Shown here piece by piece: positions 35,588 through 48,431 of a stretch of 64,000 nucleotides of DNA. Below the pieces are notes generated by a model. It was given only the letters and a program-made list of their open reading frames with translations. It was not told where the DNA came from and searched no databases. The position numbers and the translations under genes are program-made. This DNA is from Parcubacteria group bacterium (GTDB taxonomy: Bacteria > Patescibacteriota > Minisyncoccia > Phycocordibacterales > Phycocordibacteraceae), in NCBI GenBank assembly GCA_028286605.1, contig JAQBRE010000002.1, positions 262,011 to 326,010 on the forward strand. The letters run 5' to 3'. How positions within the stretch are numbered: position 1 is the first letter of the stretch; every line of letters starts with the position of its first letter.

Positions 35588-36111
35588 GTCAGCAGACTAA
35601 GAAAATACTTAGAATAGTATTCGCACTGCTTGCTTCTGCATACTTCTTCTACTACGCGCAAAGCACGGGGAGTTGGCACTTCCTCGACAATGTGAACCTC
35701 ATCATTCATGAGGCCGGGCACGTCGTGTTCTCGCCATTCGGCCGGTTCATCTACATCCTGGGCGGCTCGCTATTCCAGACGCTGGTGCCGATCGTCTTCA
35801 GCGTCTATTTTTTCGTATGGCGCCGTGATTATTATTCTGGTTCGCTGCTGTTGTTCTGGGTTGGGCAGAATCTTATAAACGTTTCTGTATACGCTGGTGA
35901 TGCGGTCGTGATGCAGCTTCCGCTCTTGGGCGGCGATTCATCCACGCACGATTGGCATGCGATCCTTTCGACGCTTAATGCGCTGCAGTACACGCATGCG
36001 GTTGCGACTGCGATATATACGACAGGATTCCTAACGATATGCGCAGGTACCGCTCTATCTCTTTACTTCGCTTTCTATACAACGCCAGAACGAATACACG
36101 CACGATTCTAA
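35584..36111 (+). CDS. Membrane protein with HExxH motif (putative zincin-like membrane peptidase, DUF3267-like)
   Basis: HEAGH in the first cytoplasmic/TM boundary (LIIHEAGHVVF); 5 TM helices. Confidence 0.5.
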   Translation: MSQQTKKILRIVFALLASAYFFYYAQSTGSWHFLDNVNLIIHEAGHVVFSPFGRFIYILGGSLFQTLVPIVFSVYFFVWRRDYYSGSLLLFWVGQNLINVSVYAGDAVVMQLPLLGGDSSTHDWHAILSTLNALQYTHAVATAIYTTGFLTICAGTALSLYFAFYTTPERIHARF

Positions 36112-36114
36112 ACT

Positions 36115-36363
36115 ATGGCGCAGTATTACGTATACATTCTTGAATGCGCAGACGGCACCTTATACGTGGGAAGCACGAATGATATTCAGAAACGCTTACG
36201 GGCCCATAACGGGGAACTGCCAGGCGGGGCGCGGTACACAAGCGGTCGCCGGCCAGTGACGCTCCGCTATAGCGAAGCGTGTACAGATCGGAGTGCCGCA
36301 CTAAAGCGCGAGCATGTAGTTAAGAATTTAAGTAGAAGCGAAAAGTTAAAGATACATAATTGA
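36115..36363 (+). CDS. GIY-YIG nuclease family protein (YhbQ/UPF0213-like)
   Basis: YYVYILECADGTLYVGSTNDIQKRLRAHN is a GIY-YIG motif. Confidence 0.7.
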   Translation: MAQYYVYILECADGTLYVGSTNDIQKRLRAHNGELPGGARYTSGRRPVTLRYSEACTDRSAALKREHVVKNLSRSEKLKIHN

Positions 36364-36446
36364 CTCCTCATGCGTCAGGAGTATACTTGTGCTATGTCCG
36401 TGGGGCATCGGCCCCTTATCCAACATTGTAGTTGATGTCGGACACC

Positions 36447-36479
36447 AAAATCTCCCGAGAAATCGGGAGATTTTGTTTT
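36447..36479. terminator. Bidirectional intrinsic terminator
   Basis: AAAATCTCCCGA-GAAA-TCGGGAGATTTT. Confidence 0.75.
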
Positions 36480-36864
36480 ATTTACTCTTACCCGCTGTCA
36501 TAATTGAGTAGAAATGCTTTTGTCCTTTGTTCATTTGGCGTATAACTGCTTTAACAAGTATTCCGTCCTTTACCTTCTTAAGAGTCCAGTACTCTGTAAC
36601 TGAACCATTAAGAACATTTTTCCTATACTCAAGCTCAGTCTTTGGGTCAGTAATTATATCTGTAATATAAGATACAAGAGAAAACCGTCGCACTTGTTCG
36701 CTATAGGAACGCATGACCTGCTTTCGAATCAAATGGCGAAACCCAATGTTGTTGAAGTGGATATACTCATTGTTTAAGACGGGACAGCGCATCTTTTTAA
36801 TCTTTTTGTAATCCTTCAAGGCTCGGTTTTTTATCTCTTCGTAGTTTTCCGAGTCTGAGTGCAT
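36478..36864 (-). CDS. Hypothetical protein (orphan, AT-rich)
   Basis: 128 aa, Lys-rich; no motif recognised. Confidence 0.45.
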   Translation of the reverse strand: MHSDSENYEEIKNRALKDYKKIKKMRCPVLNNEYIHFNNIGFRHLIRKQVMRSYSEQVRRFSLVSYITDIITDPKTELEYRKNVLNGSVTEYWTLKKVKDGILVKAVIRQMNKGQKHFYSIMTAGKSK

Positions 36865-37013
36865 TTATTTAATTTTCTCAGCACTCAATCAAAATCTGTC
36901 TATTTTAGAAGCTGTACAAGCTTTTATCTCTTCAGTTTTTCTTTATCTTTTCTTTAAAACTCCTTGATGGGTAAAAGCGTATAGTATGGGTGTTCTGATA
37001 TATAATCTTCTAT

Positions 37014-37748
37014 ATGGAACGAACTTACGTAATGACCAATCATGATCTAGTGCTAGATGGAACAGGGAAGCGCTATGAGTTGCGCGTCCGTGATTTGCCG
37101 AACGAGGAGAAGCCGCGCGAGCGATTAGCCGCTGAAGGGCCGAACGCACTCTCAGTACGAGAACTTCTGGCAATCGTGCTTACAACCGGTACGAAGAAGG
37201 AAGAAGTGCTCGCCATGACCACACGCATTGTAAACGAGTATGGCGATCGTAATATTCTTATGGCCACGGACGCGAAAGCGCTTTCAGCCGATCTCGACAT
37301 TCCGATCGTAAAGGCAATGCAGATAGTTGCCGTGGGTGAGCTTGGTCGTCGCTTTTTCCGCAAGCAGAAAAATGGCGCAGCAATCATTCGCACTGCACGA
37401 GATGTGTACGACTACACTATCGACATGCGTGCTCTGCCGAAAGAGCATCTTCGCGGCCTGTACCTGGACGCACACTACCAAGTCATTCATGATGAAACTC
37501 TTTCTATCGGTACGATCGATGCAAATCTGATTCACCCACGTGAGGTATTTCGTCCAGCGCTTGCTCATGCTGCCGCTGCCGTCGTACTGGTACACAATCA
37601 TCCTTCTGGCATCGTTACGCCGAGCGAAGCAGATTGCGTCGTAACTCAGCAGATTGCCGCAGCAGGGAAGATCGTCGGCATCGATCTTGTGGATCATGTG
37701 GTTATTACGGAAGACAGCTTTATAAGTATTCCCGTTGAATTCATATGA
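37014..37748 (+). CDS. radC: RadC-like JAB/MPN domain protein
   Basis: JAMM motif HNHPSG plus an N-terminal HhH-like segment (LLAIVLTTGTKKEEVL). Confidence 0.8.
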   Translation: MERTYVMTNHDLVLDGTGKRYELRVRDLPNEEKPRERLAAEGPNALSVRELLAIVLTTGTKKEEVLAMTTRIVNEYGDRNILMATDAKALSADLDIPIVKAMQIVAVGELGRRFFRKQKNGAAIIRTARDVYDYTIDMRALPKEHLRGLYLDAHYQVIHDETLSIGTIDANLIHPREVFRPALAHAAAAVVLVHNHPSGIVTPSEADCVVTQQIAAAGKIVGIDLVDHVVITEDSFISIPVEFI

Positions 37749-38053
37749 CTACATCACATATCCAATCCACCACCCGCACCTACGCACGCAGCTCTTATTC
37801 AAATGCTGTCGTATGCGGTTCACGCAACGCAACGCAATTCTATATCTACGACCGTTCGGCGTGGGAGACATTCGAGCCCGCAGACTTGCCGGAATATCTC
37901 ACCGAAGGTGCTGAGAAAGCCGCAGCTCATTTAGAGCGTATTGCCTATCTTGATCATCCGTACACGGAACAAGATGAACAGAATCTACGTTTTATGGTTG
38001 AAGCACTCTTACAGGCACGTCGTGCAGCTGATGAATTGATATCTACGCGCTAG
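37745..38053 (+). CDS. Hypothetical protein overlapping the radC stop (ATGA)
   Basis: 102 aa ORF; no motif recognised. Confidence 0.4.
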   Translation: MTTSHIQSTTRTYARSSYSNAVVCGSRNATQFYIYDRSAWETFEPADLPEYLTEGAEKAAAHLERIAYLDHPYTEQDEQNLRFMVEALLQARRAADELISTR

Positions 38054-40076
38054 TTTCGTCAGCCGATAAAATAGGCAAGTGAATAGTCATGATTGTCCCG
38101 TTACCGAGGATGCTTTCGGTTTCAATTCGACCCCCATGTCGTTCGACAATTCGCTTCGTTATAGCAAGGCCGATTCCTGAACCCTGTGCATCTTGTGCTC
38201 GATAGAAACGTTCGAAGATATGAGGAAGGCGTTCTTCGCCGATGCCTATACCAGTGTCTTTTATAGAAATTTCTACGCTGTCATTGTTGCGCACGAGCTG
38301 GATATGAATATTCCGCACAGGACATCCTGCGGTATACCGTACTGCATTACTGAGAATGTTTGTTATTGCTTCTTCGATTTGTCTCTTATTGCCGTCTAGA
38401 TATATCTCAGGCGCTATATTCGCGCTGAATTGAATCTCATTGTTCACGCATATGACATGGACATATTCAACGATTCGCTCAATGCTCTCGCTCAGGTTGA
38501 ATGACATCGGAGCATCAGATCCTGGCAGAGACTCAATGCGTGCAAGAGCCAAAAGATTGCTGGTGAGGCGAGACAATTCTTCAATGCTGCGTGTCGCCAT
38601 AGAAACATGCCGATGTTGATCTGCCGGAATATTCTTCGTAACTATCTCTATAGTACTGGTAAGTACGGTGAGCGGAGTTTGGAGTGCGTGCGATATGTCG
38701 TCAATGAATTCACGCTGACTTGTCCGAAGCTCTTCAAGATGCCGGGTGCGTTCCTGAACCTTATCTTCAAGATTGTCTGAATGCTGTTTGAGTTGCTCAT
38801 ACAGCTCTGCCTTTTCAAGCGCAACAGTCGCTTGGTTCGCGAACGTTCGTAATAAAGCTCGATCTTCTTTCGTATACGGATCTCCTGAGCGCTTTTGCCA
38901 CAGAAGAAATTCACCCAGGGTTCGTCCTTGCGAATATATCGGAATGATAAGGCCGCGGTGATCAGGCAGTATCGTTTCAAAAGGAAGAGCATAATCGCCG
39001 CTCATGTCATACCGTTTTCCGGTCTTCAAGTAATGGAACTCAATCCGATCTGGTTTTAAGATTCGGCTAAGCATGTGCAGGCTCCGGGCGATAAGCTGAG
39101 GAATACGGACGGTGGTATTAAGAACACCACCCAGTTCCTCAAGTGCGATTGAATACTCATATACATCCTTAAAGAAGAAACGATCGGTCTGCTTCCGAAA
39201 ATATGCTTCAATATGCGGTGCGCCGAATATCCCCACTATCACCGTCACCGTTCCTATTAGGAATTCCAATGCATCTGAATTAATTCGAAACAGGTACGCA
39301 AGGATGAATAAAAGAAGAAGATAAACACTTAAAAAGCTTCCAAGTAGCAAGCTATAAATAAGTCCGCGACGAATGAGCGGAGTAACGTCTAAGAATCGGT
39401 GGCGTACCATCGCATAGGTGCTGCATCCAACCATAATTATTGAAAACAGCGGCGCTATTTTGGAAGCATTAATAAGTGCAGGAATGAAATATGGCAGTAG
39501 TGCGGCACATATGATCACAAGGCTTAGAAAGGCTAACCAGCCGATAATGATCAATACGGCTTGATCACGAACGACCGTGCGTCCAGCCCTGCGAGCCGTC
39601 TTTACGAGTTCAGTGACGCCAAATCCAGCGATCAGGAGGCCGAGCAAGCTGAAGGGAATATAGAGAAATCCGAAGGTGAGATCATTCAACCCTGCGCTGC
39701 CAAGGACTGCATCAGAAAATACAAGATTACTCCCAATCGTTATGCCGATCATGATAAAAGAAGCTAGCGACACAAGGAAGAAGTACGGAGTAATACGTAT
39801 TTTTCGTGTCTGGGCGAAGGTTAGTGTAAAGACATAGAATACAAATATGTATCCGAGTGCGAAGCTGAAAAGCGCGCGCATCCAGAACAGTGCTTCTGCG
39901 CCCGTCGCACTTTCATCGATTGCGTAATTCGCTATTGTCCACAGGATGATTAGTCCGACCATCGTTAGAAATAGTCGAGCGTTTATGGTGCGTCTACCAG
40001 CTCGCCACACGAAGGCGGCTAGTATTGCGTTTGCCACTATAGTGACGATAAAAATTGCGCTATTTATGTCGGTCAT
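38043..40076 (-). CDS. Sensor histidine kinase with roughly 10-TM N-terminal sensor domain
   Basis: HisKA box FIDDISHALQTPLT; HATPase_c motifs (NILSNAVRYT, IKDTGIGI, GSGIGLAI). The N-terminal 330 aa is all TM helices with short loops. Confidence 0.85.
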   Translation of the reverse strand: MTDINSAIFIVTIVANAILAAFVWRAGRRTINARLFLTMVGLIILWTIANYAIDESATGAEALFWMRALFSFALGYIFVFYVFTLTFAQTRKIRITPYFFLVSLASFIMIGITIGSNLVFSDAVLGSAGLNDLTFGFLYIPFSLLGLLIAGFGVTELVKTARRAGRTVVRDQAVLIIIGWLAFLSLVIICAALLPYFIPALINASKIAPLFSIIMVGCSTYAMVRHRFLDVTPLIRRGLIYSLLLGSFLSVYLLLLFILAYLFRINSDALEFLIGTVTVIVGIFGAPHIEAYFRKQTDRFFFKDVYEYSIALEELGGVLNTTVRIPQLIARSLHMLSRILKPDRIEFHYLKTGKRYDMSGDYALPFETILPDHRGLIIPIYSQGRTLGEFLLWQKRSGDPYTKEDRALLRTFANQATVALEKAELYEQLKQHSDNLEDKVQERTRHLEELRTSQREFIDDISHALQTPLTVLTSTIEIVTKNIPADQHRHVSMATRSIEELSRLTSNLLALARIESLPGSDAPMSFNLSESIERIVEYVHVICVNNEIQFSANIAPEIYLDGNKRQIEEAITNILSNAVRYTAGCPVRNIHIQLVRNNDSVEISIKDTGIGIGEERLPHIFERFYRAQDAQGSGIGLAITKRIVERHGGRIETESILGNGTIMTIHLPILSADETSA

Positions 40077-40144
40077 AGATTCCTGCTAATGAGGTATTCA
40101 TATAATACGGTGGGCGGTACCTTTCAGGTACCGCCCGTAGTGTC

Positions 40145-40786
40145 TTATTTTATTGCCCATTCTGTTTTTGCAGTACTGTACCGAGAGTACATGTGTTCAG
40201 CGTGTTTTGCTAGTTGGCTTTCAAACTCATCGATCCAAATAATGGAAGGAACTACAATACCTCCGTGATACAGATACGGTGCTGCAAGCGCATGTTGCGT
40301 TCCGAAGAATGTCTCATTGATACGTTCGAATATTCGTGGACTGCCGAGCGATACAAGACCTATCATTCCTTTTGCGCTTGCATAGGCAACTGATTGTATG
40401 ACGGCCTCCGAGAGTACTTGCCGTGCAGGATCAGAACCTCTTGATAAAGAACGGGCTGCAGACACGACACGCGTAGACTCACAGAGCCTCTTAGAAATGC
40501 CTTCAATAGCGAGACGAGGGAAAGCTGATAAGAGCGGAAGGCCGTGAGTCCCCACTATCAGACGAAACGTACCTGCTATCGTTTTTGGCTCTGTTCTCGT
40601 GTACAGAAGGCAATACGCGGCCCTCTCCGTGTCGTATTCATCACTTGGTTCTGCAGCGATCTCCTTACTGATATAGCCTTTTCGCAGATAGGAATCAGCA
40701 ATAAGCGCGAGATGTGCTAAATATTCTGTTGATCGGAAGAGCGCCGATGCGACAAGATATGGCGATATTTGTTCAGGATTATTCAT
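40145..40786 (-). CDS. LuxI-type (autoinducer-synthase-like) GNAT-fold N-acyltransferase
   Basis: By-eye alignment to LasI: YLRKGY / DEYDTERAAYCLLYTR / GTFRLIVGTHGLPLLSAFPRL / CESTRVVS versus FKERKGW / DGYDALSPYYMLIQED / GCWRILDTTGPYMLKNTFPEL / WELSRFAI. The start codon abuts the ThiF stop. Confidence 0.5.
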   Translation of the reverse strand: MNNPEQISPYLVASALFRSTEYLAHLALIADSYLRKGYISKEIAAEPSDEYDTERAAYCLLYTRTEPKTIAGTFRLIVGTHGLPLLSAFPRLAIEGISKRLCESTRVVSAARSLSRGSDPARQVLSEAVIQSVAYASAKGMIGLVSLGSPRIFERINETFFGTQHALAAPYLYHGGIVVPSIIWIDEFESQLAKHAEHMYSRYSTAKTEWAIK

Positions 40787-41743
40787 CTATCGTTCCTTAC
40801 GTTTAACTATGACTTTCATTTCGAACCGTGCTGCGTCGAAGTACCCATATCCTGGAGAAACAGGTATCTGCAGTATCGAACGTTCTGAACCAAACGAAGC
40901 GAGTAGATACAAGAGGACCTGGTTGGCGACAATGCCTGCCGCAACCAAGGGATTAGTTGTAATAATAGAAGCAGTCCCTTCTTTTATAAGACGCTCCATG
41001 ACTTGTGCAGCGGTGTCAGTGGAATAGTTCGGAATAGACGGAATGAAGGCGTTCAAGATTTTTGTAGCCAGAGCAACTCGCTCCACATCGCTGATAGTTC
41101 CCTCGAGCACCGCACGTTCAAGGCGATCTGCTTCTGACAAGCTTAATCCAAGCAATGTCTCGACATGCATACTTTGGGGCGTAAACAGATGCAGATAGGA
41201 GGCAAATCCAACGCTTAATCCATTGAAGATCGCTATGCCACAAGCACGTGCCGCCTGATGCATGTGTATGCAGGAACTGATATTCCAGAACTCAATCTCG
41301 TCGATAATTACATCGGCGCCTTTGATGAATTCGGCAGCCGTGTCGACGGTAATGCCTTGCGGATACACCACCAGACGATAATCATTTGTGATGGCACGCA
41401 TACTCCGAGCCGTTTCAATCGCTTTGGAGCGTCCGATCGTCCCGTCACCACAGGCAGCCTGCCGGTTCATATTCGAGAGCTCGAAGGATTCGGGGTCTGC
41501 AATACGTATCTCTCCTATGCCAAGCCTCACCATCGCTTGCGCGACCAAGCCACCCATCCCGCCTGTTCCTGCAATCGCTACGCAGGTGTTTCTGAGTAAC
41601 GATTGTTCTTCTTTGGTAATCCAGCCGATATTTCTGTTCGTGCGTAATTCATAATAGGTATCACCTCGATCTATCAAGCGTAGCGCGAATGCTGAAGCAG
41701 GTCTGAATTCAGGAACAACATCATATTCTTCAAGCGTGTGCAT
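40787..41743 (-). CDS. ThiF/MoeB/HesA-family (E1-like) adenylyltransferase with roughly 60 aa N-terminal extension
   Basis: Nucleotide-binding IAGTGGMGG and NMNRQ motifs; 318 aa. Confidence 0.85.
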   Translation of the reverse strand: MHTLEEYDVVPEFRPASAFALRLIDRGDTYYELRTNRNIGWITKEEQSLLRNTCVAIAGTGGMGGLVAQAMVRLGIGEIRIADPESFELSNMNRQAACGDGTIGRSKAIETARSMRAITNDYRLVVYPQGITVDTAAEFIKGADVIIDEIEFWNISSCIHMHQAARACGIAIFNGLSVGFASYLHLFTPQSMHVETLLGLSLSEADRLERAVLEGTISDVERVALATKILNAFIPSIPNYSTDTAAQVMERLIKEGTASIITTNPLVAAGIVANQVLLYLLASFGSERSILQIPVSPGYGYFDAARFEMKVIVKRKER

Positions 41744-41772
41744 CTGAACATTTCTTTCGTTGAGTAAGTACC

Positions 41773-41796
41773 GAATGAACAGGAATGAACATTCCT
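41773..41796 (-). promoter_or_regulatory. Tandem direct repeats GAATGAACA (10-bp phase) plus palindrome AGGAATGAACATTCCT in the operon promoter
   Basis: Lies 30-70 bp upstream of the ThiF start and downstream of the OmpR-type regulator gene; its geometry is typical of OmpR/PhoB-family binding sites. Confidence 0.35.
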
Positions 41797-41909
41797 TACC
41801 TATAGTAGTAAATCAGTGGTGATGGGAGCTTAAACAAAAGATAAAGAAAAACTGAAATAATTTACACTTATCCCCTGGCAAATTTTCTCACCCAGCACTC
41901 TGTAGAGAC

Positions 41910-42587
41910 TTATGGAGAGGGGAGATCAATTCGATACCCGCGCCCCGGTACGGTATGAATAAGTTTCTTTCGGTCTGGTCCTTCTATCTTTTTTCGCAAG
42001 CTTAGAATGTGCGATTCGATCGTGTTAGAGAATGGATCGCTCGTCATGTCCCATACGTGTTCCATAATCATTGCGCGTGAAAGCACGCTGCCGCGATTCC
42101 TCATAAGGTATTCCAGCAACATATACTCTTTACGGGTAAGGTATATATCCAAGCCCACGCGCTTTGCAGTTTGTTGCTTGGTATCGAGGGAAAGCGTATC
42201 GATAATAATAATGTCTCCCTCAAGCGCAGGCGGTCTTCGAAGGAGTGCACGTATTCGTGCCATAAGCTCTTCAAATGAGAACGGCTTGATCATATAATCG
42301 TCTGCACCAGCATTCAACAGATCAACCTTTCTCCATGAATCGGAAAGCACAGACAGAATCAAAATCGGCGTCATATTTCCAGTACGCCTAATATCCTCAC
42401 AAACAGCCATGCCATTCTTTTCTGGCAGCATATTATCAAGGATGATCAGGTCATATATATTGGTACGTGCCATGTATGAGCCCTCTATACCATCTTCCGC
42501 TGTGTCTACAGCAAAAGCACGAGCACGCAGATTTTCAGCTAATGTTTCGCGCACGCCACGTTCGTCATCTATTACAAGTGCTCTCAT
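41910..42587 (-). CDS. OmpR/PhoB-family response regulator
   Basis: Receiver domain with the phospho-acceptor Asp (LIILDNMLP) and a winged-helix C-terminus (LTRKEYMLLEYLMRNRG...). Confidence 0.9.
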   Translation of the reverse strand: MRALVIDDERGVRETLAENLRARAFAVDTAEDGIEGSYMARTNIYDLIILDNMLPEKNGMAVCEDIRRTGNMTPILILSVLSDSWRKVDLLNAGADDYMIKPFSFEELMARIRALLRRPPALEGDIIIIDTLSLDTKQQTAKRVGLDIYLTRKEYMLLEYLMRNRGSVLSRAMIMEHVWDMTSDPFSNTIESHILSLRKKIEGPDRKKLIHTVPGRGYRIDLPSP

Positions 42588-42686: not shown

Positions 42687-43271
42687 TCACGTTGATTTCT
42701 TTGACTCGGATATGAAGAAAAACACGAGAGAAATAACAGAACTTATGGCAATGAGATAGGTAAGTGCTACGAGTGCAGTATGAATGTCATGAGACCACGG
42801 CGTACCGATGGTGTAGCCGATAGCGAGATAGGCGACGACGCAGATGCTTTCGCCAGCTGCCGCTGCACCGAAGAACTTGAACAGGTTCATGCGCGTGAGC
42901 CCGGCGAGCGCATTCACCGGCATGCTCGTGAAGCCGATGAAACGAGATACGGCAACCACGAGAGTCGGATGTTTCCTGAAGTTCCGTTCTATAACGCCTG
43001 CGTAGCGATTCTTATTCACGAACTCCAGATACTTCTCTTTTTTCCCGACCCAGCGCGTTATGCCGTACGTGATAGCGTCATCTACCAAACTAGCCAAGAG
43101 CGCCACGATGAACGAAAGGGTGAGTGTAAAGAAGTGGTGATGGTGCGAAAGGACGCCGACGGCGATCAGCATCACGCCTGCAGGAACCGGCACGTAGGTC
43201 CCACCCAGAAGCACGAAAATAAATAGGGCAACGTACCCATATTGTGAAAGAAGTTGTAAGAACATCGCCAT
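42687..43271 (-). CDS. DedA/SNARE-associated family membrane protein
   Basis: FVLLGGTYVPVPAGVMLIAVG is a DedA-type motif; 194 aa. Confidence 0.65.
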   Translation of the reverse strand: MAMFLQLLSQYGYVALFIFVLLGGTYVPVPAGVMLIAVGVLSHHHHFFTLTLSFIVALLASLVDDAITYGITRWVGKKEKYLEFVNKNRYAGVIERNFRKHPTLVVAVSRFIGFTSMPVNALAGLTRMNLFKFFGAAAAGESICVVAYLAIGYTIGTPWSHDIHTALVALTYLIAISSVISLVFFFISESKKST

Positions 43272-43335
43272 ACAGATTGATAGAGTGTAGCATTTTGCTT
43301 CTTGGTAAGAGAGTGAAGAGGCGATTATTGACTAT

Positions 43336-43349
43336 CGAACAAATGTTCG
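43336..43349 (+). promoter_or_regulatory. SOS (LexA) box CGAACAAATGTTCG
   Basis: Perfect CGAAC-N4-GTTCG palindrome about 15 nt upstream of the lexA start. Confidence 0.6.
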
Positions 43350-43363
43350 AGTATACTGTTTGT

Positions 43364-43930
43364 ATGGAAATAAGCCGTCATCGCAAGGTCTTGGGCTTCT
43401 ATCGGAAGAATAAACGCATGCCTTCTATTACGGAGATCATGGCGATCTTCGGGCTCTCTTCGCGTAGCAGTGGTTTTTATGTGATGCAGCAACTAGTTAA
43501 GCAAGGTGTGGCGGAAAAGGATCGCACAGGAAAGCTGGTGCCAGGGCCGGAACTCTTTACGCTGCCAGTGCTTGGGCGAATCCGTGCCGGATTCGCCGCG
43601 CCTGCCGAAGAAGAACTCGCAGATACTATTACGATAGGCGAGTACCTATTGGGTCGCCCCGAAGCAAGTTACCTATTAAAGGTAGAGGGTGATTCGATGC
43701 AGGATGCCGGCATACAGGAAGGCGACATGGTGGTATTCGAGCGTACGAATGATTACAAGCCGGGCGATATCGTCGTGGCGCTCACAGAAGACGGCTACAC
43801 GCTGAAATATCTACGCCGCAAAGACGGGAAGTATTACTTGGAAGCTGCGAACGAGAACTATCCGGATATTCATCCGCGCGAAGGTGAGATCATCGGCGTC
43901 GTCATCTCGACGTTCCGGACCTATTCCTAA
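43364..43930 (+). CDS. lexA: LexA repressor
   Basis: N-terminal winged HTH (PSITEIMAIFGLSSRSSGFYVMQQLVKQGV); S24 peptidase domain with the GDSM Ser motif and catalytic Lys; start at the internal Met (track 43244). Confidence 0.8.
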   Translation: MEISRHRKVLGFYRKNKRMPSITEIMAIFGLSSRSSGFYVMQQLVKQGVAEKDRTGKLVPGPELFTLPVLGRIRAGFAAPAEEELADTITIGEYLLGRPEASYLLKVEGDSMQDAGIQEGDMVVFERTNDYKPGDIVVALTEDGYTLKYLRRKDGKYYLEAANENYPDIHPREGEIIGVVISTFRTYS

Positions 43931-43933
43931 GCT

Positions 43934-45247
43934 ATGTCCGATCTGCTTTCTACGCGATCGTTTCCGCGCGCTATCGTGCATTTCGACGGCGACTCGTTCT
44001 TCGCTTCGGTAGAGCAGCTGATGAATCATGAGCTGCGCGGCAAGCCGGTGATTACGGGCGGCGAGCGTGGTGCGGCAACTTCGCTTTCCTACGAAGCGAA
44101 ACGCATGGGTGCGCACCGCGGCATGAGCATGCGCGAGATAAAGAAGATATGCCCGAATGCAGTCATCGTTTCTTCGGATTATCTTTCGTACTCCATTTAC
44201 GCACGGCGCATGTATGCGATCGTACGTTCGTTCACGCCGGATGTAGAGGAATACAGCATCGACGAATGCTTTGCAGATATCACCGGGTTGCGCCAAAAAT
44301 ATCACATGCCATATGAAAAGATTACCCAGATGATTCAGGCGAAGCTGCTTGCTGATTTAGGATTGAGTTTCAGCGCAGGGCTGGGGCCGAACAAGAGCTT
44401 GGCGAAAGTTGCCTCGAAGTTCCGTAAGCCGGCAGGCTTCACGTCTATTCCTGCAAAAGAAGCACACTTATATTTGAAAGATGTATGGGTGGGGAGCGTG
44501 TGGGGCATGGGCGGCAGCACGAGCCTGTATATGCAGAAGCTCGGCATCAATACGGCGCTCGAGTTCGCGCAGCAGGATGCGCACTGGCTTGAGGTTAACA
44601 AGATAAGCAAGCCGTATCGAGATATCTGGACGGAACTGCGTGGCGGTTTCGTGAAGCAGCTCAATACAGCGAGTGATGATTCTATCGGTTCCATAATGAA
44701 AACGCAGACGTTCACGCCGCCCTCGAGCGACCGCGCCTTCATACTTTCGCAGCTAGCGCGCAATATCGAAGGCGCCTGCATGAAAGCACGCCGGCACGGC
44801 GTGCGCGGGCGCACCTGCTCCTTCTATCTGAAGACGCAGGACTTCACCTATAGCGGCCTTTCGCTCGAGCTCTCATTACCCTTAGCAGATCCGCGCGAGT
44901 TCATGCGGTTAATTGAAGCGGAATTCGATCGCGTGTTCGAAGAAGGTATACTGTATCGCGCCACCGGTTTTACGCTCCGTTCCATAACGGCAGACCACGC
45001 GATCATGAATGATCTCTTCGGCGATAGCGAGAAAGCAGAAGCGAAAGGCAAGATCCTTACGACGCTCGATATTCTTAATCACAAATTCGGAAGCAATACG
45101 GTACATTTCGCCTCGAGCTTCACGGCACGGAAGGATGGCGACGCGCATCAGGAGATGCGTGCGAAGAAGTCCCGTCCGAGAATCAATCTTTCTATAGAGA
45201 AGCGACGCAAGTCTTTGAACATTCCGTATCTTGGCATCGTTCGGTAA
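43934..45247 (+). CDS. dinB: DNA polymerase IV (Y-family)
   Basis: N-terminus IVHFDGDSFFASVEQ; the SIDECFAD catalytic motif; 437 aa. Confidence 0.9.
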   Translation: MSDLLSTRSFPRAIVHFDGDSFFASVEQLMNHELRGKPVITGGERGAATSLSYEAKRMGAHRGMSMREIKKICPNAVIVSSDYLSYSIYARRMYAIVRSFTPDVEEYSIDECFADITGLRQKYHMPYEKITQMIQAKLLADLGLSFSAGLGPNKSLAKVASKFRKPAGFTSIPAKEAHLYLKDVWVGSVWGMGGSTSLYMQKLGINTALEFAQQDAHWLEVNKISKPYRDIWTELRGGFVKQLNTASDDSIGSIMKTQTFTPPSSDRAFILSQLARNIEGACMKARRHGVRGRTCSFYLKTQDFTYSGLSLELSLPLADPREFMRLIEAEFDRVFEEGILYRATGFTLRSITADHAIMNDLFGDSEKAEAKGKILTTLDILNHKFGSNTVHFASSFTARKDGDAHQEMRAKKSRPRINLSIEKRRKSLNIPYLGIVR

Positions 45248-45268
45248 TACCTACGTATAACGAGATAA

Positions 45269-45297
45269 GGAAAGGCCCCGCGAAGCGGGGCCTTTCC
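45269..45297. terminator. Bidirectional intrinsic terminator
   Basis: GGAAAGGCCCCGC-GAAG-CGGGGCCTTTCC. Confidence 0.75.
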
Positions 45298-45308
45298 ACG
45301 TCTATTCT

Positions 45309-48300
45309 TTAATGCGCCCCTTCGTCTGAATCGAACTTCGCACGCACTGCTTTCCCTGGCCAGCGGTAATACAGCATTGGAATGAGCACGAGCGTAAGAA
45401 GGAGTGAGAAGGCGAGGCCGAACATGATGGCGACAGCGAGCGGACCGAAGAATGCAGAGGTGATGGCAAGCGGGACCATGCCGATGACCGTTACGACGGT
45501 CGTAAGAAGGATAGGGCGTAGTCGCGTAGACGCTGCTTCCACCACCACGTCTTCAAGCGAATGCGTCGGATTCTCACGATGGATGCGTGCGATGGAATCC
45601 ATCAGGATGATCGCGTGGTTGATGATCACGCCAGCTAAGGCGATGACGCCGAGCATCGACGTAAGCGATAGCGGTTGGCCCACGAGCAACAGACCAGCAA
45701 ACACGCCGACAAGCGAAAGAGGAATGATGAGCAGCAGATAGAACGAATGACGGAACGAGTTGAACTCAAGGATCAGGATACTGAGCATAAGCGCTGCGCC
45801 TGCGATAAGAGCGAAGATAAGCTCGACGAACGAATTCGTAACGTCTTGAGTCGCGCCGCCGAGGTCCATGGTGACGCCCGTGCCGATCATGGCCGGCGTG
45901 AATTTCTTCTGGAATTCTTTCGTCGCTTCGATAGCATTCGTCTTGCCGCTTACGTCTGCGGTAACGGTCGTGATGCGGTTGCCGTCCTGATGATTGATAG
46001 AGGATTGTGCAGCCTCATAGGAGATAGTCGCGATAGTGGAAAGGGGAACAGGGCCGTGTGCGCCTGGTACCGTAAGCGCACGGACGGAATCGATCGTCGT
46101 ATTCGTTGTCTGCGACGGATCCGCATAGTTCGGATTCAGATCGAGCTTGGTGTGTACTTCGATGTCGTCCTTACCGGCACGTATCGAAGTTGCTTTCTCG
46201 CTGAAGAGTGCAGTACGAAGCGTGTCGGCAACGACCGTCGGCGAGACGCCGAGCTGCGTTGCTTTGTCGCTGTCGAGCGTCACGACGAACTCCGCACTGG
46301 AATTCTCGGTGCTTGAATGAATGTTCACCACACCAGGAATAGAGGCGAGCGTATGCGCAGCGTTGTCTGCTGTCGTTGAAAGCGCATCAAGATCCTGGCC
46401 CGAGAACGTGATGGTGATGGGAGAAGCTGAAGGCGGGCCGCCTGCCGGTTCGCCAACCGTGATTGTCGCGGAGGTTATCGGTGCGAGCTGCGCGCGAAGT
46501 TCCGTTACCAGTTGCGCACTTGTCTGCTTGTGATTCTTCGGAAGATTGACCGTGATGTTTCCTACGTTGCTGCCTGAAGAAGGACCGGTAAGGCCGCCGC
46601 CTGCGAACGAGCTGCCTGCGCCTGCTTCGCTTACGAATGAAGCGACATGGGGATTCGCATACAGCACTTCCTCTACCTGGCGCACGGCAAGATCGGTTTC
46701 ATCGAGATCCGTACCCTGCGGCTTCTCAACCTGTACATATATATAATCGGAATCAGCACTCGGGAAGAAAATCGATTTCACGACACCGGTAAGCGGAAGC
46801 GCGAGCGCGACAAAGAACAGCACGACCATGCCTATAAGGAAGAAGTTCTGATTTCGCTTGTTGTTAAGCAGATGATGCAGGAAGTTCTGATACCACGCCT
46901 TTGCTTTGATGTTGTATCGCTCCTGCCACTCCTGAGACTTCGAATGCTCATCCTTCACGAACATGATCGCGAGCAGCGGCACGAAGCCGAGCGCGACGAA
47001 GATAGAAGCGAGCAACACGAAGATTATCGTGAACGGTATCGCGCCGAGGAATTTTCCGATGATACCGGAAAGAAAGAAGAGCGGCACGAAGACGACGATC
47101 GTCGTAAACGTTCCGGCAATGAGGGGCCATGCGTATTCACGGATTGCTGCGATAGCTGCTTCTTGTTTATCGCCGTATTTGAGTAATCGGGTATGGAATG
47201 CTTCCACCACGACGATGCCGGAATCCACGAGAATACCTATCGCAAGGATAAGCGCGAAGAGTGAGACTTCGTTCAGCGTATTGCCTGAAGCGAGCAAGCC
47301 GATGAATGCAACGAGGAAGGAAAGGGGAATCGATGCCGCAGCAACGAGCGATTCGCGCCAGCCGAGCGTAAGCAGCAGGATGATCATCACGAGGATGACG
47401 GTCTCGATACCTGCGCGCGAAAGCTCGACGAGGCTCTTGTTCACTTCGTCCGCGCCGTTGTATGAAACGACCGTCTCGGTTCCGGCAAGCGTCGTACCCT
47501 GCAGGCTTGCGAGTTCCTTCTGCACTGCTTGGGCCGTGGCGACGATATTGCCGCCACGTGCCTTGAAGACGCTCAGCGTGAGCGAAGGGTTCGCCGGCTT
47601 TCCGCTCACTGATACGCGCGAATAGGTAGTCGGGTCTTCAAGGCCGTCTACGACGTCAGCGACATCGCGTACGTGCAGCGCGATACCGCCAGGGCCGGTG
47701 ATAGCGACGTTCGCGACCTGATCGGTAGTCGTAATACCGGATTCGAACCGTACTGCATAATTCACGCCGTCTACGGTGATGTCGCCCGCAGGGGATGCAA
47801 CGCCGGCGGTACGGATAGCGTTCGTAACATCAGAAAGAGAAAGCCCATATTGCTGAAGTGCTGCCTGCTTCGCGATGACCTGTACCTGCCGTGCGCGTAC
47901 GCCGGAAACCTGCACGCTTGAAACGCCCGGTACGCGCTTCACGTCATCGGAAACCGTTCCACCAAGCGCGGTAAGTTCTTCCGGCGAAAGATTGCCTGAT
48001 ATAGAGACGATAAGGATCGGCGAGTCGGCGAAGTTTACGTCGGAGACGGTCGGTGTCGTTGCTTCTGTGGGCAAGTCCGGTTGCACTTTCGTAACGGCAT
48101 CCTTAAGGAGCTGGATAGACTTATCGATATTCGCGCTCGAATCGAATTCGACGGAAACGGAAGAGAAGCCATCGCCCGAGGTAGAAGTAACTTTCGAAAC
48201 ATGCGCCACGCCGAGCACGCCGTCTTCGATCTTGTCTGTAACGAGACGTTCAACGTCTGCAGATGATGCGCCGGGAAGTGCGGTCGTAATAACGCCGAGC

Positions 48301-48431
48301 GGTATGGAAATATCTGGTGTCGATTCCTTCGGAATCGACACCACGGCATAGAGACCCGCCGCAAGCAGCACGATCATCAGAAATACGGTGAAATGTTCTT
48401 TCTTAAGGAAGAAGCTCCAGAATTTTGTCAT
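45309..48431 (-). CDS. RND efflux transporter (AcrB-like, HAE family)
   Basis: 1040 aa with 12 TM helices and two large periplasmic loops. Confidence 0.9.
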   Translation of the reverse strand: MTKFWSFFLKKEHFTVFLMIVLLAAGLYAVVSIPKESTPDISIPLGVITTALPGASSADVERLVTDKIEDGVLGVAHVSKVTSTSGDGFSSVSVEFDSSANIDKSIQLLKDAVTKVQPDLPTEATTPTVSDVNFADSPILIVSISGNLSPEELTALGGTVSDDVKRVPGVSSVQVSGVRARQVQVIAKQAALQQYGLSLSDVTNAIRTAGVASPAGDITVDGVNYAVRFESGITTTDQVANVAITGPGGIALHVRDVADVVDGLEDPTTYSRVSVSGKPANPSLTLSVFKARGGNIVATAQAVQKELASLQGTTLAGTETVVSYNGADEVNKSLVELSRAGIETVILVMIILLLTLGWRESLVAAASIPLSFLVAFIGLLASGNTLNEVSLFALILAIGILVDSGIVVVEAFHTRLLKYGDKQEAAIAAIREYAWPLIAGTFTTIVVFVPLFFLSGIIGKFLGAIPFTIIFVLLASIFVALGFVPLLAIMFVKDEHSKSQEWQERYNIKAKAWYQNFLHHLLNNKRNQNFFLIGMVVLFFVALALPLTGVVKSIFFPSADSDYIYVQVEKPQGTDLDETDLAVRQVEEVLYANPHVASFVSEAGAGSSFAGGGLTGPSSGSNVGNITVNLPKNHKQTSAQLVTELRAQLAPITSATITVGEPAGGPPSASPITITFSGQDLDALSTTADNAAHTLASIPGVVNIHSSTENSSAEFVVTLDSDKATQLGVSPTVVADTLRTALFSEKATSIRAGKDDIEVHTKLDLNPNYADPSQTTNTTIDSVRALTVPGAHGPVPLSTIATISYEAAQSSINHQDGNRITTVTADVSGKTNAIEATKEFQKKFTPAMIGTGVTMDLGGATQDVTNSFVELIFALIAGAALMLSILILEFNSFRHSFYLLLIIPLSLVGVFAGLLLVGQPLSLTSMLGVIALAGVIINHAIILMDSIARIHRENPTHSLEDVVVEAASTRLRPILLTTVVTVIGMVPLAITSAFFGPLAVAIMFGLAFSLLLTLVLIPMLYYRWPGKAVRAKFDSDEGAH

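Follow-up and report, generated by a model that had tools for sequence, protein, structure and literature searches.

A ThiF-family enzyme and a FeeM/LuxI-fold acyltransferase framed by a two-component system: a conserved gene cassette of the candidate phyla radiation that may make and sense an N-acyl amino acid derivative

The closest described relatives of the gene cassette analysed here are the pathways for bacterial N-acyl oxazolones, i.e. OxzA/OxzB of Pseudoalteromonas rubra (bioRxiv 10.1101/2020.06.11.147165), TyzA/TyzB/TyzC of Mycobacterium tuberculosis (PMC10404671) and TrzA/TrzS (PMC12856293), whose logic of a synthase for N-acyl amino acids (NAS) working together with a ThiF-like enzyme is shared by the stieleriacine-type clusters (PMC12479983). 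For OxzAB, TyzABC and TrzAS it has been demonstrated that NAS activity is followed by ATP-dependent cyclization by the ThiF-family enzyme (PMC10404671, PMC12856293, bioRxiv 10.1101/2020.06.11.147165); a saturated cyclized intermediate was observed with a TrzS whose desaturase domain had been disabled (PMC12856293), desaturation in these routes being carried out by a flavin oxidase of the nitroreductase superfamily. The oxazolone papers leave the physiological role of the compounds unresolved and speculate on their likeness to signals (PMC12856293, bioRxiv 10.1101/2020.06.11.147165), and cyclic di-GMP (c-di-GMP) genes flank the trzAS locus. From another side, a survey of the candidate phyla radiation (CPR) found 36 LuxI homologues, of which 18 adjoin a sensor kinase, and proposed these homologues and kinases as complete quorum-sensing systems, read as depending on N-acyl homoserine lactones (AHLs) (Bernard et al. 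2020, mSystems; PMC7567580). Here we describe a cassette of four genes in a 64 kb stretch of a Parcubacteria (CPR/Patescibacteria) metagenome-assembled genome (MAG; contig JAQBRE010000002.1, hereafter 'the window'), in which a ThiF-family enzyme and an acyltransferase of the FeeM/LuxI fold are framed by the two partners of a two-component system.

The four genes all lie on the minus strand of the window, exactly (4/4) at the coordinates given in the original prediction, a model's reading of the bare sequence. The first encodes an OmpR/PhoB-type response regulator of 225 aa (41910–42587), in which Pfam recognizes a receiver (Response_reg, 6.7e-24) and a winged-helix DNA-binding domain (Trans_reg_C, 1.7e-25). 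It is followed by an ATP-dependent adenylating enzyme of the ThiF/E1 family (318 aa; 40787–41743), by a 213-aa GNAT-type acyltransferase with FeeM/LuxI fold, i.e. a putative NAS (40145–40786), and by a sensor histidine kinase of 677 aa (38043–40076), which combines about nine transmembrane (TM) segments (HisKA_7TM) with GAF-like, HisKA and HATPase_c domains. Pfam matches uphold the identities that had been assigned to regulator, ThiF enzyme and kinase. As had been noticed, the acyltransferase ATG comes directly after the ThiF stop codon (TAG), with an AAGGA 8 nt upstream, and we propose from this arrangement that the acyltransferase gene is translationally abutted to thiF and that the two proteins are probably co-translated. 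Also in agreement with the original prediction, there is no LuxR-type receptor among the cassette genes or their neighbours. Such an absence is not unusual, as in LuxM/LuxN, AinS/AinR and CqsA/CqsS acyl signals are read by membrane kinases. By contrast, it was wrong to regard the combination of these enzyme classes as undescribed, since the oxazolone synthetases of the literature work by NAS plus a ThiF-like enzyme. Our observations concern the gene content and domains of the cassette, the predicted fold of its acyltransferase, the conservation and fusion of the enzyme pair, the conservation of the two-component system and the recurrence of the sensor beside acyl-amide synthases; a reading in which the cassette makes a compound and senses it is plausible.

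The cassette recurs as a unit. Its gene order on one strand—regulator, ThiF enzyme, a protein of about 200 aa and a 7TM kinase—is found in Terrybacteria, Azambacteria, Paceibacterota, Nomurabacteria and other CPR. Among 19 informative CPR-type loci, to which the following counts refer, the GNAT is adjacent or fused to ThiF in all (19/19), a 7TM kinase lies downstream in 18/19, and 15 have an OmpR-type regulator upstream of ThiF. At 13 further loci, the 104 flanking open reading frames (ORFs) belong to 100 Pfam families, of which RadC is the only one to recur (three times). Because distant loci retain the four genes while their flanks differ, the cassette can be taken as a conserved unit, so that the four-gene synteny, which it had been suggested to test in related genomes, is borne out in distant CPR with unrelated flanks; retention in close relatives is weak evidence, because there the wider neighbourhood is retained as well. 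Identity to the window proteins at the distant loci L006–L026 is 12–20% for the GNAT, 20–27% for the kinase TM domain, 32–43% for the kinase core, 37–46% for ThiF and 44–71% for the regulator, which is 44–89% identical across cassettes. At 13 other CPR loci, the kinase of the cassette has a TM domain homologous to that of the window kinase. The proteins of about 200 aa at distant loci match T_hemolysin and FeeM weakly, and they match a hidden Markov model (HMM) of the C-terminal domain of ThiF–acyltransferase fusion proteins (see below) with values from 3e-21 to 2.5e-7 at CPR loci and with 2.1e-4 at locus L023.

Some cassettes carry accessory genes for S-adenosylmethionine (SAM) methyltransferases, ADI/DDAH-like enzymes or a ketosynthase. 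Between regulator and kinase, a Terrybacteria locus (L006:3852–6004) has an ADI/DDAH-like enzyme and a ketosynthase, while at another locus (L016:6137–10114) an ADI/DDAH-like enzyme is accompanied by two SAM methyltransferases; such additions may mean that the amino-acid or acyl moiety of the product is modified in a lineage-specific way. No member of the nitroreductase family was found among the called genes within 5–8 kb in nine fetched contexts, and none recurred in the 104 flanking ORFs of the 13 further loci, an aggregate output that could hide a single occurrence.

The ThiF-family protein matches Pfam PF00899 (5.2e-28). Its best NCBIfam match is PRK08223, an unnamed model (8.3e-41; 140 bits, under the cutoff of 266), and it scores far under the equivalog cutoffs of ThiF (TIGR02356, 73 of 275 bits), MoeB (PRK05690, 54 of 266) and TcdA, the last of which had been raised as a possible known function and is not supported (42 bits against a cutoff of 304). 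In an AlphaFold2 (AF2) model with a pLDDT of 90.8, the nearest solved chains are AclA (9EGB), ThiF and MoeB. The GxGGxG motif, D83, N91/R94/Q95, K107 and D148 are invariant over 24 homologues; with its nucleotide- and Mg-binding motifs thus preserved, the enzyme looks active, as far as can be predicted. The CxxC zinc motif of the MoeB/ThiF type is not present in its sequence, and no sulfur-carrier gene (ThiS/MoaD) occurs near the cassette in the fetched contexts. Matches to MccB and PaaA are restricted to the Rossmann core (residues 47–115), with no sign of an N-terminal peptide-clamp/RRE domain as in these enzymes, and the 166-bp and 68-bp gaps of the cassette contain no conserved small ORF that might encode a precursor peptide of the MccB/PaaA type.

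More than 120 homologues of this ThiF protein were found at about 45% identity, nearly all of them in CPR. Several are fusions of 500–526 aa, and in P0068, P0084 and P0093 an N-terminal ThiF domain is joined to a C-terminal Acetyltransf_5/Autoind_synth/FeeM domain. The order within the fusions is that of the gene pair in the window, which provides a Rosetta-stone link between ThiF and the acyltransferase. The GNAT domains of the fusion type pass PF13444, and the C-terminus of P0068 also passes the LuxI model PF00765 (24.4 bits against a cutoff of 24).

For the 213-aa acyltransferase itself, Pfam reports FeeM (PF21926, 3.7e-7; 30.5 bits, above the cutoff of 27), whereas PF00765 (Autoind_synth) gives no match at E <= 1; TIGR03694, the model for PEP-CTERM-associated acyltransferases, matches weakly (1.9e-5). 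The AF2 model is of moderate confidence (pLDDT 70.6, pTM 0.75), and in a Foldseek comparison of this model with the Protein Data Bank (PDB), BjaI, RpaI, TofI, FeeM, LasI, MesI and EsaI rank above generic GNATs, the matches having E values from 5e-8 to 3e-5 and TM-scores of about 0.6. With the family profile, the best sequence match in the PDB is TofI, which is weak (E 0.038) and in register. The window subtype is rare, with five homologues in a word index and 12 matches in an exhaustive HMMER search of 1.84 billion representatives. D49, D52, R75, E103, S104 and R106 are invariant in the five-member family, the equivalence of these D-x-x-D, R and E-S-x-R blocks to the LuxI residues having been judged by eye and from the in-register TofI match; since FeeM has the same blocks, they cannot separate AHL synthases from NAS. 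The original assignment as a LuxI-type enzyme therefore stands in so far as the protein is LuxI/FeeM-like by profile and predicted fold, and fails for the LuxI model, FeeM being passed instead. The protein is better called an acyltransferase of the FeeM/NAS type than a LuxI-type AHL synthase, because its ThiF partner requires a free carboxylate, which an AHL does not have.

In the kinase, Pfam finds HisKA_7TM (1.8e-12), HisKA, HATPase_c and, near threshold, GAF_2 (27.1 against 28.6 bits). The claim that its sensor consists of a bundle of membrane helices was right in kind, the number of about 10 being replaced by about nine segments with short loops in a hydropathy scan, followed by a GAF-like domain. 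NCBIfam matches, including that to LuxQ, are confined to the kinase core (residues 445–674), and in the Pfam and NCBIfam searches neither LuxN nor CqsS showed detectable similarity to the input domain. Kinase residues 3–446 are collinear with an 848-aa TM-GAF-GGDEF-HD-GYP protein from a Chloroflexia MAG (22% identity, E 3e-14), the gene of which stands together with genes for ThiF, a LuxI-like GNAT and a LuxR/GerE-type response regulator (L048:6962–12744, CAWKAJ010000002.1). The GNAT in this locus passes Autoind_synth (2.4e-12, 47 bits), and the locus looks like the same synthase pair with a sensor of c-di-GMP output. Searches with the input region also revealed 7TM(-GAF)-HD-GYP proteins whose genes directly follow those of acyl-acid amido synthetases of the GH3 family, e.g. 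on the metagenome contigs L095 (779–4522) and L101 (1134–4462), where a GH3 gene is immediately upstream of a HisKA_7TM(-GAF)-HD-GYP gene and, in L101, overlaps with it; this may be another kind of pairing between an acyl-amide synthase and a sensor. Finally, a 7TM-GAF-PAS kinase with homologous input adjoins a standalone ketosynthase. This recurrence of one input module beside acyl-amide or lipid-like synthases, with varying outputs, is the best, though indirect, support for a relation of ligand and receptor between product and kinase, which may exist in the cassette as well.

Candidate regulatory elements are found in both intergenic gaps. In the 166-bp gap between the regulator gene and thiF, the tandem repeats that had been claimed are two exact copies of GAATGAACA (41773–41781 and 41783–41791), 10 nt apart from start to start. 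Read on the minus strand, they form a proximal direct repeat TGTTCATTC-C-TGTTCATTC with a 10-nt period (41773–41791), located 30–48 nt upstream of the ThiF ATG, as a candidate OmpR-type site. The 64 kb window contains only one other exact copy of GAATGAACA, and single copies with up to one mismatch are about as frequent as chance predicts (16 against an expected 15.7). The identical TGTTCATTC pair occurs at the same position in L004 and is degenerate in L001, which has a 4-nt insertion, and in L005. A distal, T-rich direct repeat on the minus strand, TTTTCTTTA-N2-TTTTGTTTA with an 11-nt period (41831–41850), is a candidate regulator or promoter element; it lies within the block TTTCAGTTTTTCTTTATCTTTT, which an alignment of orthologous promoters shows to be shared by the window, L001 and L004 and whose region is the best-conserved block between regulator gene and thiF; the repeat itself, with a spacing of 11, was found also in L001. 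In this alignment, the region upstream of thiF shows a phylogenetic footprint, the T-rich block and the TGTTCATTC pair together being preserved in the window and L004 and degenerate in L001 and L005, and the regulator may bind at the repeats. Consensus promoter and terminator scans gave background levels. A 20-codon ORF running over the repeats was considered as a precursor and rejected, as it has 10 codons in L004 and no ATG in L001.

The 68-bp gap between the acyltransferase and kinase genes contains, on the minus strand, the GC-rich RNA hairpin that had been suggested at about 40112–40136, and it is real: its 11-nt arms (40112–40122 and 40126–40136) are 100% complementary, with a minimum free energy of -24.2 kcal/mol (z = -4.1). 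L001, L005 and L019 also have hairpins at this position, which differ in sequence. There is no canonical T-tract at the hairpin on the coding strand, and the element, a candidate partial terminator, attenuator or stabilizer, may serve to separate the expression of synthase and receptor.

How could such a cassette work? For the substrates and the product of the pair we infer the following. As its family membership suggests, the FeeM/LuxI-fold acyltransferase would N-acylate an amino acid, and the ThiF enzyme would use ATP to adenylate the free carboxylate of the resulting N-acyl amino acid, with the adenylate being resolved intramolecularly by analogy with TyzB, OxzB and TrzS. A saturated 5(4H)-oxazolone (azlactone) would be the most likely outcome, the alternative being a side-chain lactone or lactam; because there is no nitroreductase-type desaturase at the cassette, the product would differ from the known tyrazolones and tryptazolones. 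This lipophilic product, or the N-acyl amino acid arising from its hydrolysis, would be sensed by the 9-TM/GAF input of the kinase, which would phosphorylate the OmpR-type regulator. The latter could then act on the direct repeats upstream of thiF, i.e. exert feedback control on the synthase genes, with the hairpin permitting different expression levels of synthase and kinase genes. Taken as a whole, this chain, in which a quorum-sensing-like CPR module makes and senses an ATP-cyclized or ATP-activated N-acyl amino acid, is put forward tentatively, with a chance of being correct that we place slightly below even.

Several observations weigh against this chain. At the level of the chemistry, a saturated azlactone would be hydrolytically labile, and the desaturase that defines the known oxazolone clusters is absent. 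Moreover, many CPR genomes are without fatty-acid synthesis, which bears on the origin of the acyl donor. The match of the ThiF enzyme to NF005901, the Rv1355c family, covers the ThiF core only and with 64 bits (cutoff 476) does not exceed that to TIGR02356 (73 bits). On the side of the acyltransferase, hhalign finds no similarity between the window-type GNAT family (A1) and the commoner CPR type (A4) (probability 0.14%), and the window GNAT is bridged to the GNAT domain of the fusions via P0131–P0136 and the fusion-domain HMM, a link which is transitive only. Two CPR-type loci, L021 and L023, have the ThiF–GNAT pair without a two-component system, and at L014 no regulator is detectable. In distant cassettes, no shared direct repeats, the proximal ones included, turned up upstream of thiF, and the position of the proximal repeats only 30–48 nt from the start codon is odd for an activator site. 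The GH3-linked sensors represent one syntenic lineage. Finally, co-divergence of GNAT and kinase TM domain in a mirror-tree comparison (rho 0.83 with the window clade included) dropped to a rho of 0.23 (Mantel p 0.15) without the window clade, and because of this collapse the comparison was discarded as evidence.

Part of these observations would suit a two-component system that answers not the product of the pair but an external cue, e.g. envelope stress or a host-derived lipid, and controls the synthesis of an N-acyl amino acid derivative serving as a membrane lipid, an antimicrobial or a stress metabolite. The loss of a significant co-divergence signal and the two loci that keep the pair without the two-component system point in this direction, as do the induction of proteobacterial oxazolone production by antibiotics, the connection of the M. 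tuberculosis tyz locus to oxidative stress, the mainly cell-associated state of tyrazolones and tryptazolones and the MFS exporters and ArsR regulators in related ThiF clusters, which resemble ordinary biosynthetic clusters in this respect. Yet regulator and kinase bracket the synthase pair in most CPR lineages, an intramembrane sensor fits a lipophilic ligand, and homologous TM-GAF inputs with different outputs beside acyl-amide synthases are what a cognate ligand predicts, so that we regard control by a foreign stimulus as possible but on the unlikely side. Another possibility is that ThiF acts first, i.e. that it adenylates a carboxylic or amino acid and passes the acyl adenylate to its GNAT-fold partner, in which case the pair would be an N-acyl amino acid synthetase independent of coenzyme A (CoA) and acyl carrier protein (ACP), functionally equivalent to GH3, and a plain amide would be the signal. 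Gene order and fusion order, both ThiF then GNAT, would agree with this sequence of steps, the cassette has no desaturase that could stabilize an oxazolone, and GH3 amido synthetases, which first adenylate and then form the amide, hold the equivalent position next to homologous sensors; in addition, fatty-acid and ACP pathways are often missing from CPR genomes. In every characterized case, however, ThiF works after the acyltransferase and on an N-acyl amino acid, and enzymes of the LuxI/FeeM fold take acyl-ACP or acyl-CoA (PMC10404671, PMC12856293); furthermore, a review from 2025 states that activation of a fatty acid is not known for any enzyme of the ThiF family (PMC12596934). This renders the reversed order rather improbable.

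Two further explanations were considered. If the 213-aa protein were a classical LuxI-type AHL synthase and the kinase a LuxN-like receptor, ThiF would be a passenger. AHL synthases are indeed the top structural matches, the P0068 fusion and the Chloroflexia protein pass PF00765, and the CPR survey of Bernard et al. (2020) has LuxI homologues adjoining sensor kinases. But ThiF is the best-conserved cassette gene and in several lineages is fused to the GNAT, and therefore is not a passenger; an AHL would offer it no free carboxylate for adenylation, and the window protein itself passes FeeM and has no match to PF00765. An AHL system thus seems very improbable. Alternatively, the E1-like enzyme could modify a macromolecule, by activating the C-terminus of a small protein or of a peptide made by ribosomes and then modified post-translationally, for which MccB, PaaA and ubiquitin-like systems are models, or a tRNA base as in TcdA, with the GNAT providing immunity or tailoring. 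Most characterized ThiF-family enzymes have protein, peptide or tRNA targets, and PaaA, MccB and TcdA are among the structural or sequence matches; those to MccB and PaaA, however, comprise the Rossmann core alone, the TcdA, MoeB and ThiF equivalog scores are far under their cutoffs, and the partner has the FeeM/LuxI fold and is not a GNAT of the RimL/MccE type. With neither a ThiS/MoaD/ubiquitin-like gene in the cassette nor room for a precursor ORF, this explanation is hardly credible.

Beyond the CPR, relatives of the ThiF enzyme occur in other biosynthetic settings. In Roseovarius, Pseudomonas and Thermoleophilia, members of the same ThiF clade have NAS-like GNATs as partners; in Pseudomonas spp. 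(L053, L055, L060, L071), an alpha/beta hydrolase, ThiF, an MFS transporter and a 221-aa NAS-like GNAT, which only a broadened profile detects (E ~1e-6), form a conserved cluster. Elsewhere this clade pairs with putative N-acylating enzymes, which resemble carbamoyl- or formyltransferases, and with MFS exporters. Compact clusters with ThiF relatives that are about 30% identical along 90% of the length are found on plasmids of Staphylococcus epidermidis (L091, NZ_CP090919.1), Lactiplantibacillus plantarum (L092) and Corynebacterium tuberculostearicum (L093) and in Streptomyces (L032), with the order ArsR/wHTH regulator, ThiF, carbamoyl- or formyltransferase-like enzyme and MFS exporter; several of these ArsR–ThiF–MFS clusters reside on small plasmids of human skin bacteria. 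This family looks uncharacterized and may cyclize N-carbamoyl or N-formyl amino acids. Around non-CPR ThiF relatives with 30–35% identity, no oxazolone-type clusters were found, the neighbours being carbamoyltransferase-like proteins, an LCM methyltransferase, a hydrolase and MFS proteins.

As to the surroundings of the cassette in the window, GC content is 0.46–0.47 over 36001–42000, i.e. the cassette and its downstream neighbours, against 0.50–0.56 in most of the window. Upstream (42687–48431) there are genes for a membrane protein of the VTT/DedA family, for a LexA-like S24 peptidase accompanied by a Y-family polymerase (IMS) and for an RND transporter of 1040 aa; since L001, L004 and L005 are syntenic for this VTT/DedA, S24 peptidase/IMS and RND set, it represents ordinary lineage context. 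In the window (37014–38053), in L001, L004 and L005 and at three other loci, a gene for a RadC-like JAB protein converges on the 3' end of the kinase gene, as does, in the window, L001 and L004, the gene for an unannotated but conserved protein of about 100 aa; in the window, the RadC-like/~100-aa region overlaps the kinase gene by 11 nt. The recurrence of RadC may reflect either lineage synteny or a functional link.

Overall, the cassette embeds the logic of an oxazolone synthetase, minus the desaturase, in a two-component system and does so across the CPR. It thereby wires a two-enzyme chemistry for which no role has been settled to a membrane sensor and a transcription factor, i.e. it offers this chemistry a candidate receptor. 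That the desaturase is missing and that ThiF::acyltransferase fusions occur suggests a hitherto undescribed product. In bacteria with tiny genomes that depend on other cells, the cassette is among few regulatory modules conserved across many CPR lineages, and a private lipid-amide signal, if it exists, would bear on how CPR bacteria sense their kin or their hosts. At a more general level, the autoinducers of the CPR could be an unrecognized class, ATP-cyclized N-acyl amino acids produced by ThiF plus FeeM-like enzymes and read by 9-TM/GAF receptors, a generalization that we consider improbable. If true, the receptor module with its kinase, c-di-GMP and other outputs, together with ThiF–GNAT pairs, GH3 enzymes and ketosynthases, would constitute a broad lipid-amide signalling family across phyla, and this would also explain what acyl-oxazolones do in bacteria, M. 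tuberculosis included.

Compared with the known systems, the cassette has been anticipated in print in part, while the lack of a nitroreductase partner, the dedicated two-component system around the pair and the wide spread in CPR appear to be new. Like the oxazolone clusters, it has a (here putative) NAS of the FeeM/LuxI fold adjoining an ATP-dependent ThiF-family enzyme, here with an intact predicted ATP/Mg site; TyzB is a standalone ThiF protein of 318 aa, the same length as the window protein, and some CPR cassettes, like oxazolone variants such as that of Stieleria, add a SAM methyltransferase. In contrast to the cassette, where none was found, oxazolone clusters always include a flavin desaturase of the nitroreductase superfamily, either fused or adjacent, and they have no dedicated two-component system. 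Where ThiF is fused, its partner is the acyltransferase in CPR, yet the desaturase in oxazolone clusters. Also, the latter, including the NasY–ThiF–nitroreductase clusters of Stieleria, Thalassotalea and Massilia, belong to Pseudomonadota, Actinomycetota and Planctomycetota and not to the CPR, with Rhodococcus being named besides M. tuberculosis among the hosts of TyzABC/TrzAS clusters.

The loci of Bernard et al. (2020) are probably the same as, or overlap with, those of the cassette, but neither text nor supplements of that study mention ThiF, and fusions, the response regulator and a link to N-acyl amino acids or oxazolones do not appear there (PMC7567580); the AHL reading of these CPR loci is replaced here. 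Among FeeM and the PEP-CTERM-associated NAS families (PF21926, PF13444, TIGR03694), FeeM (2G0B) has the fold predicted for the window protein, whose FeeM score is 30.5 bits only; differences are that the cassette has no gene for an acyl carrier protein (FeeL) and no exosortase context, and that it provides a ThiF partner. In functional terms, the best analogy is given by LuxM/LuxN, AinS/AinR, CqsA/CqsS and LqsA/LqsS, in which a synthase adjoins a TM-bundle kinase that binds a lipophilic autoinducer, without LuxR being involved. From these, the cassette differs in its synthase chemistry, which would rely on a ThiF plus FeeM-like pair, and in its kinase, which is a non-hybrid HisKA_7TM plus GAF protein paired with an OmpR-type regulator.

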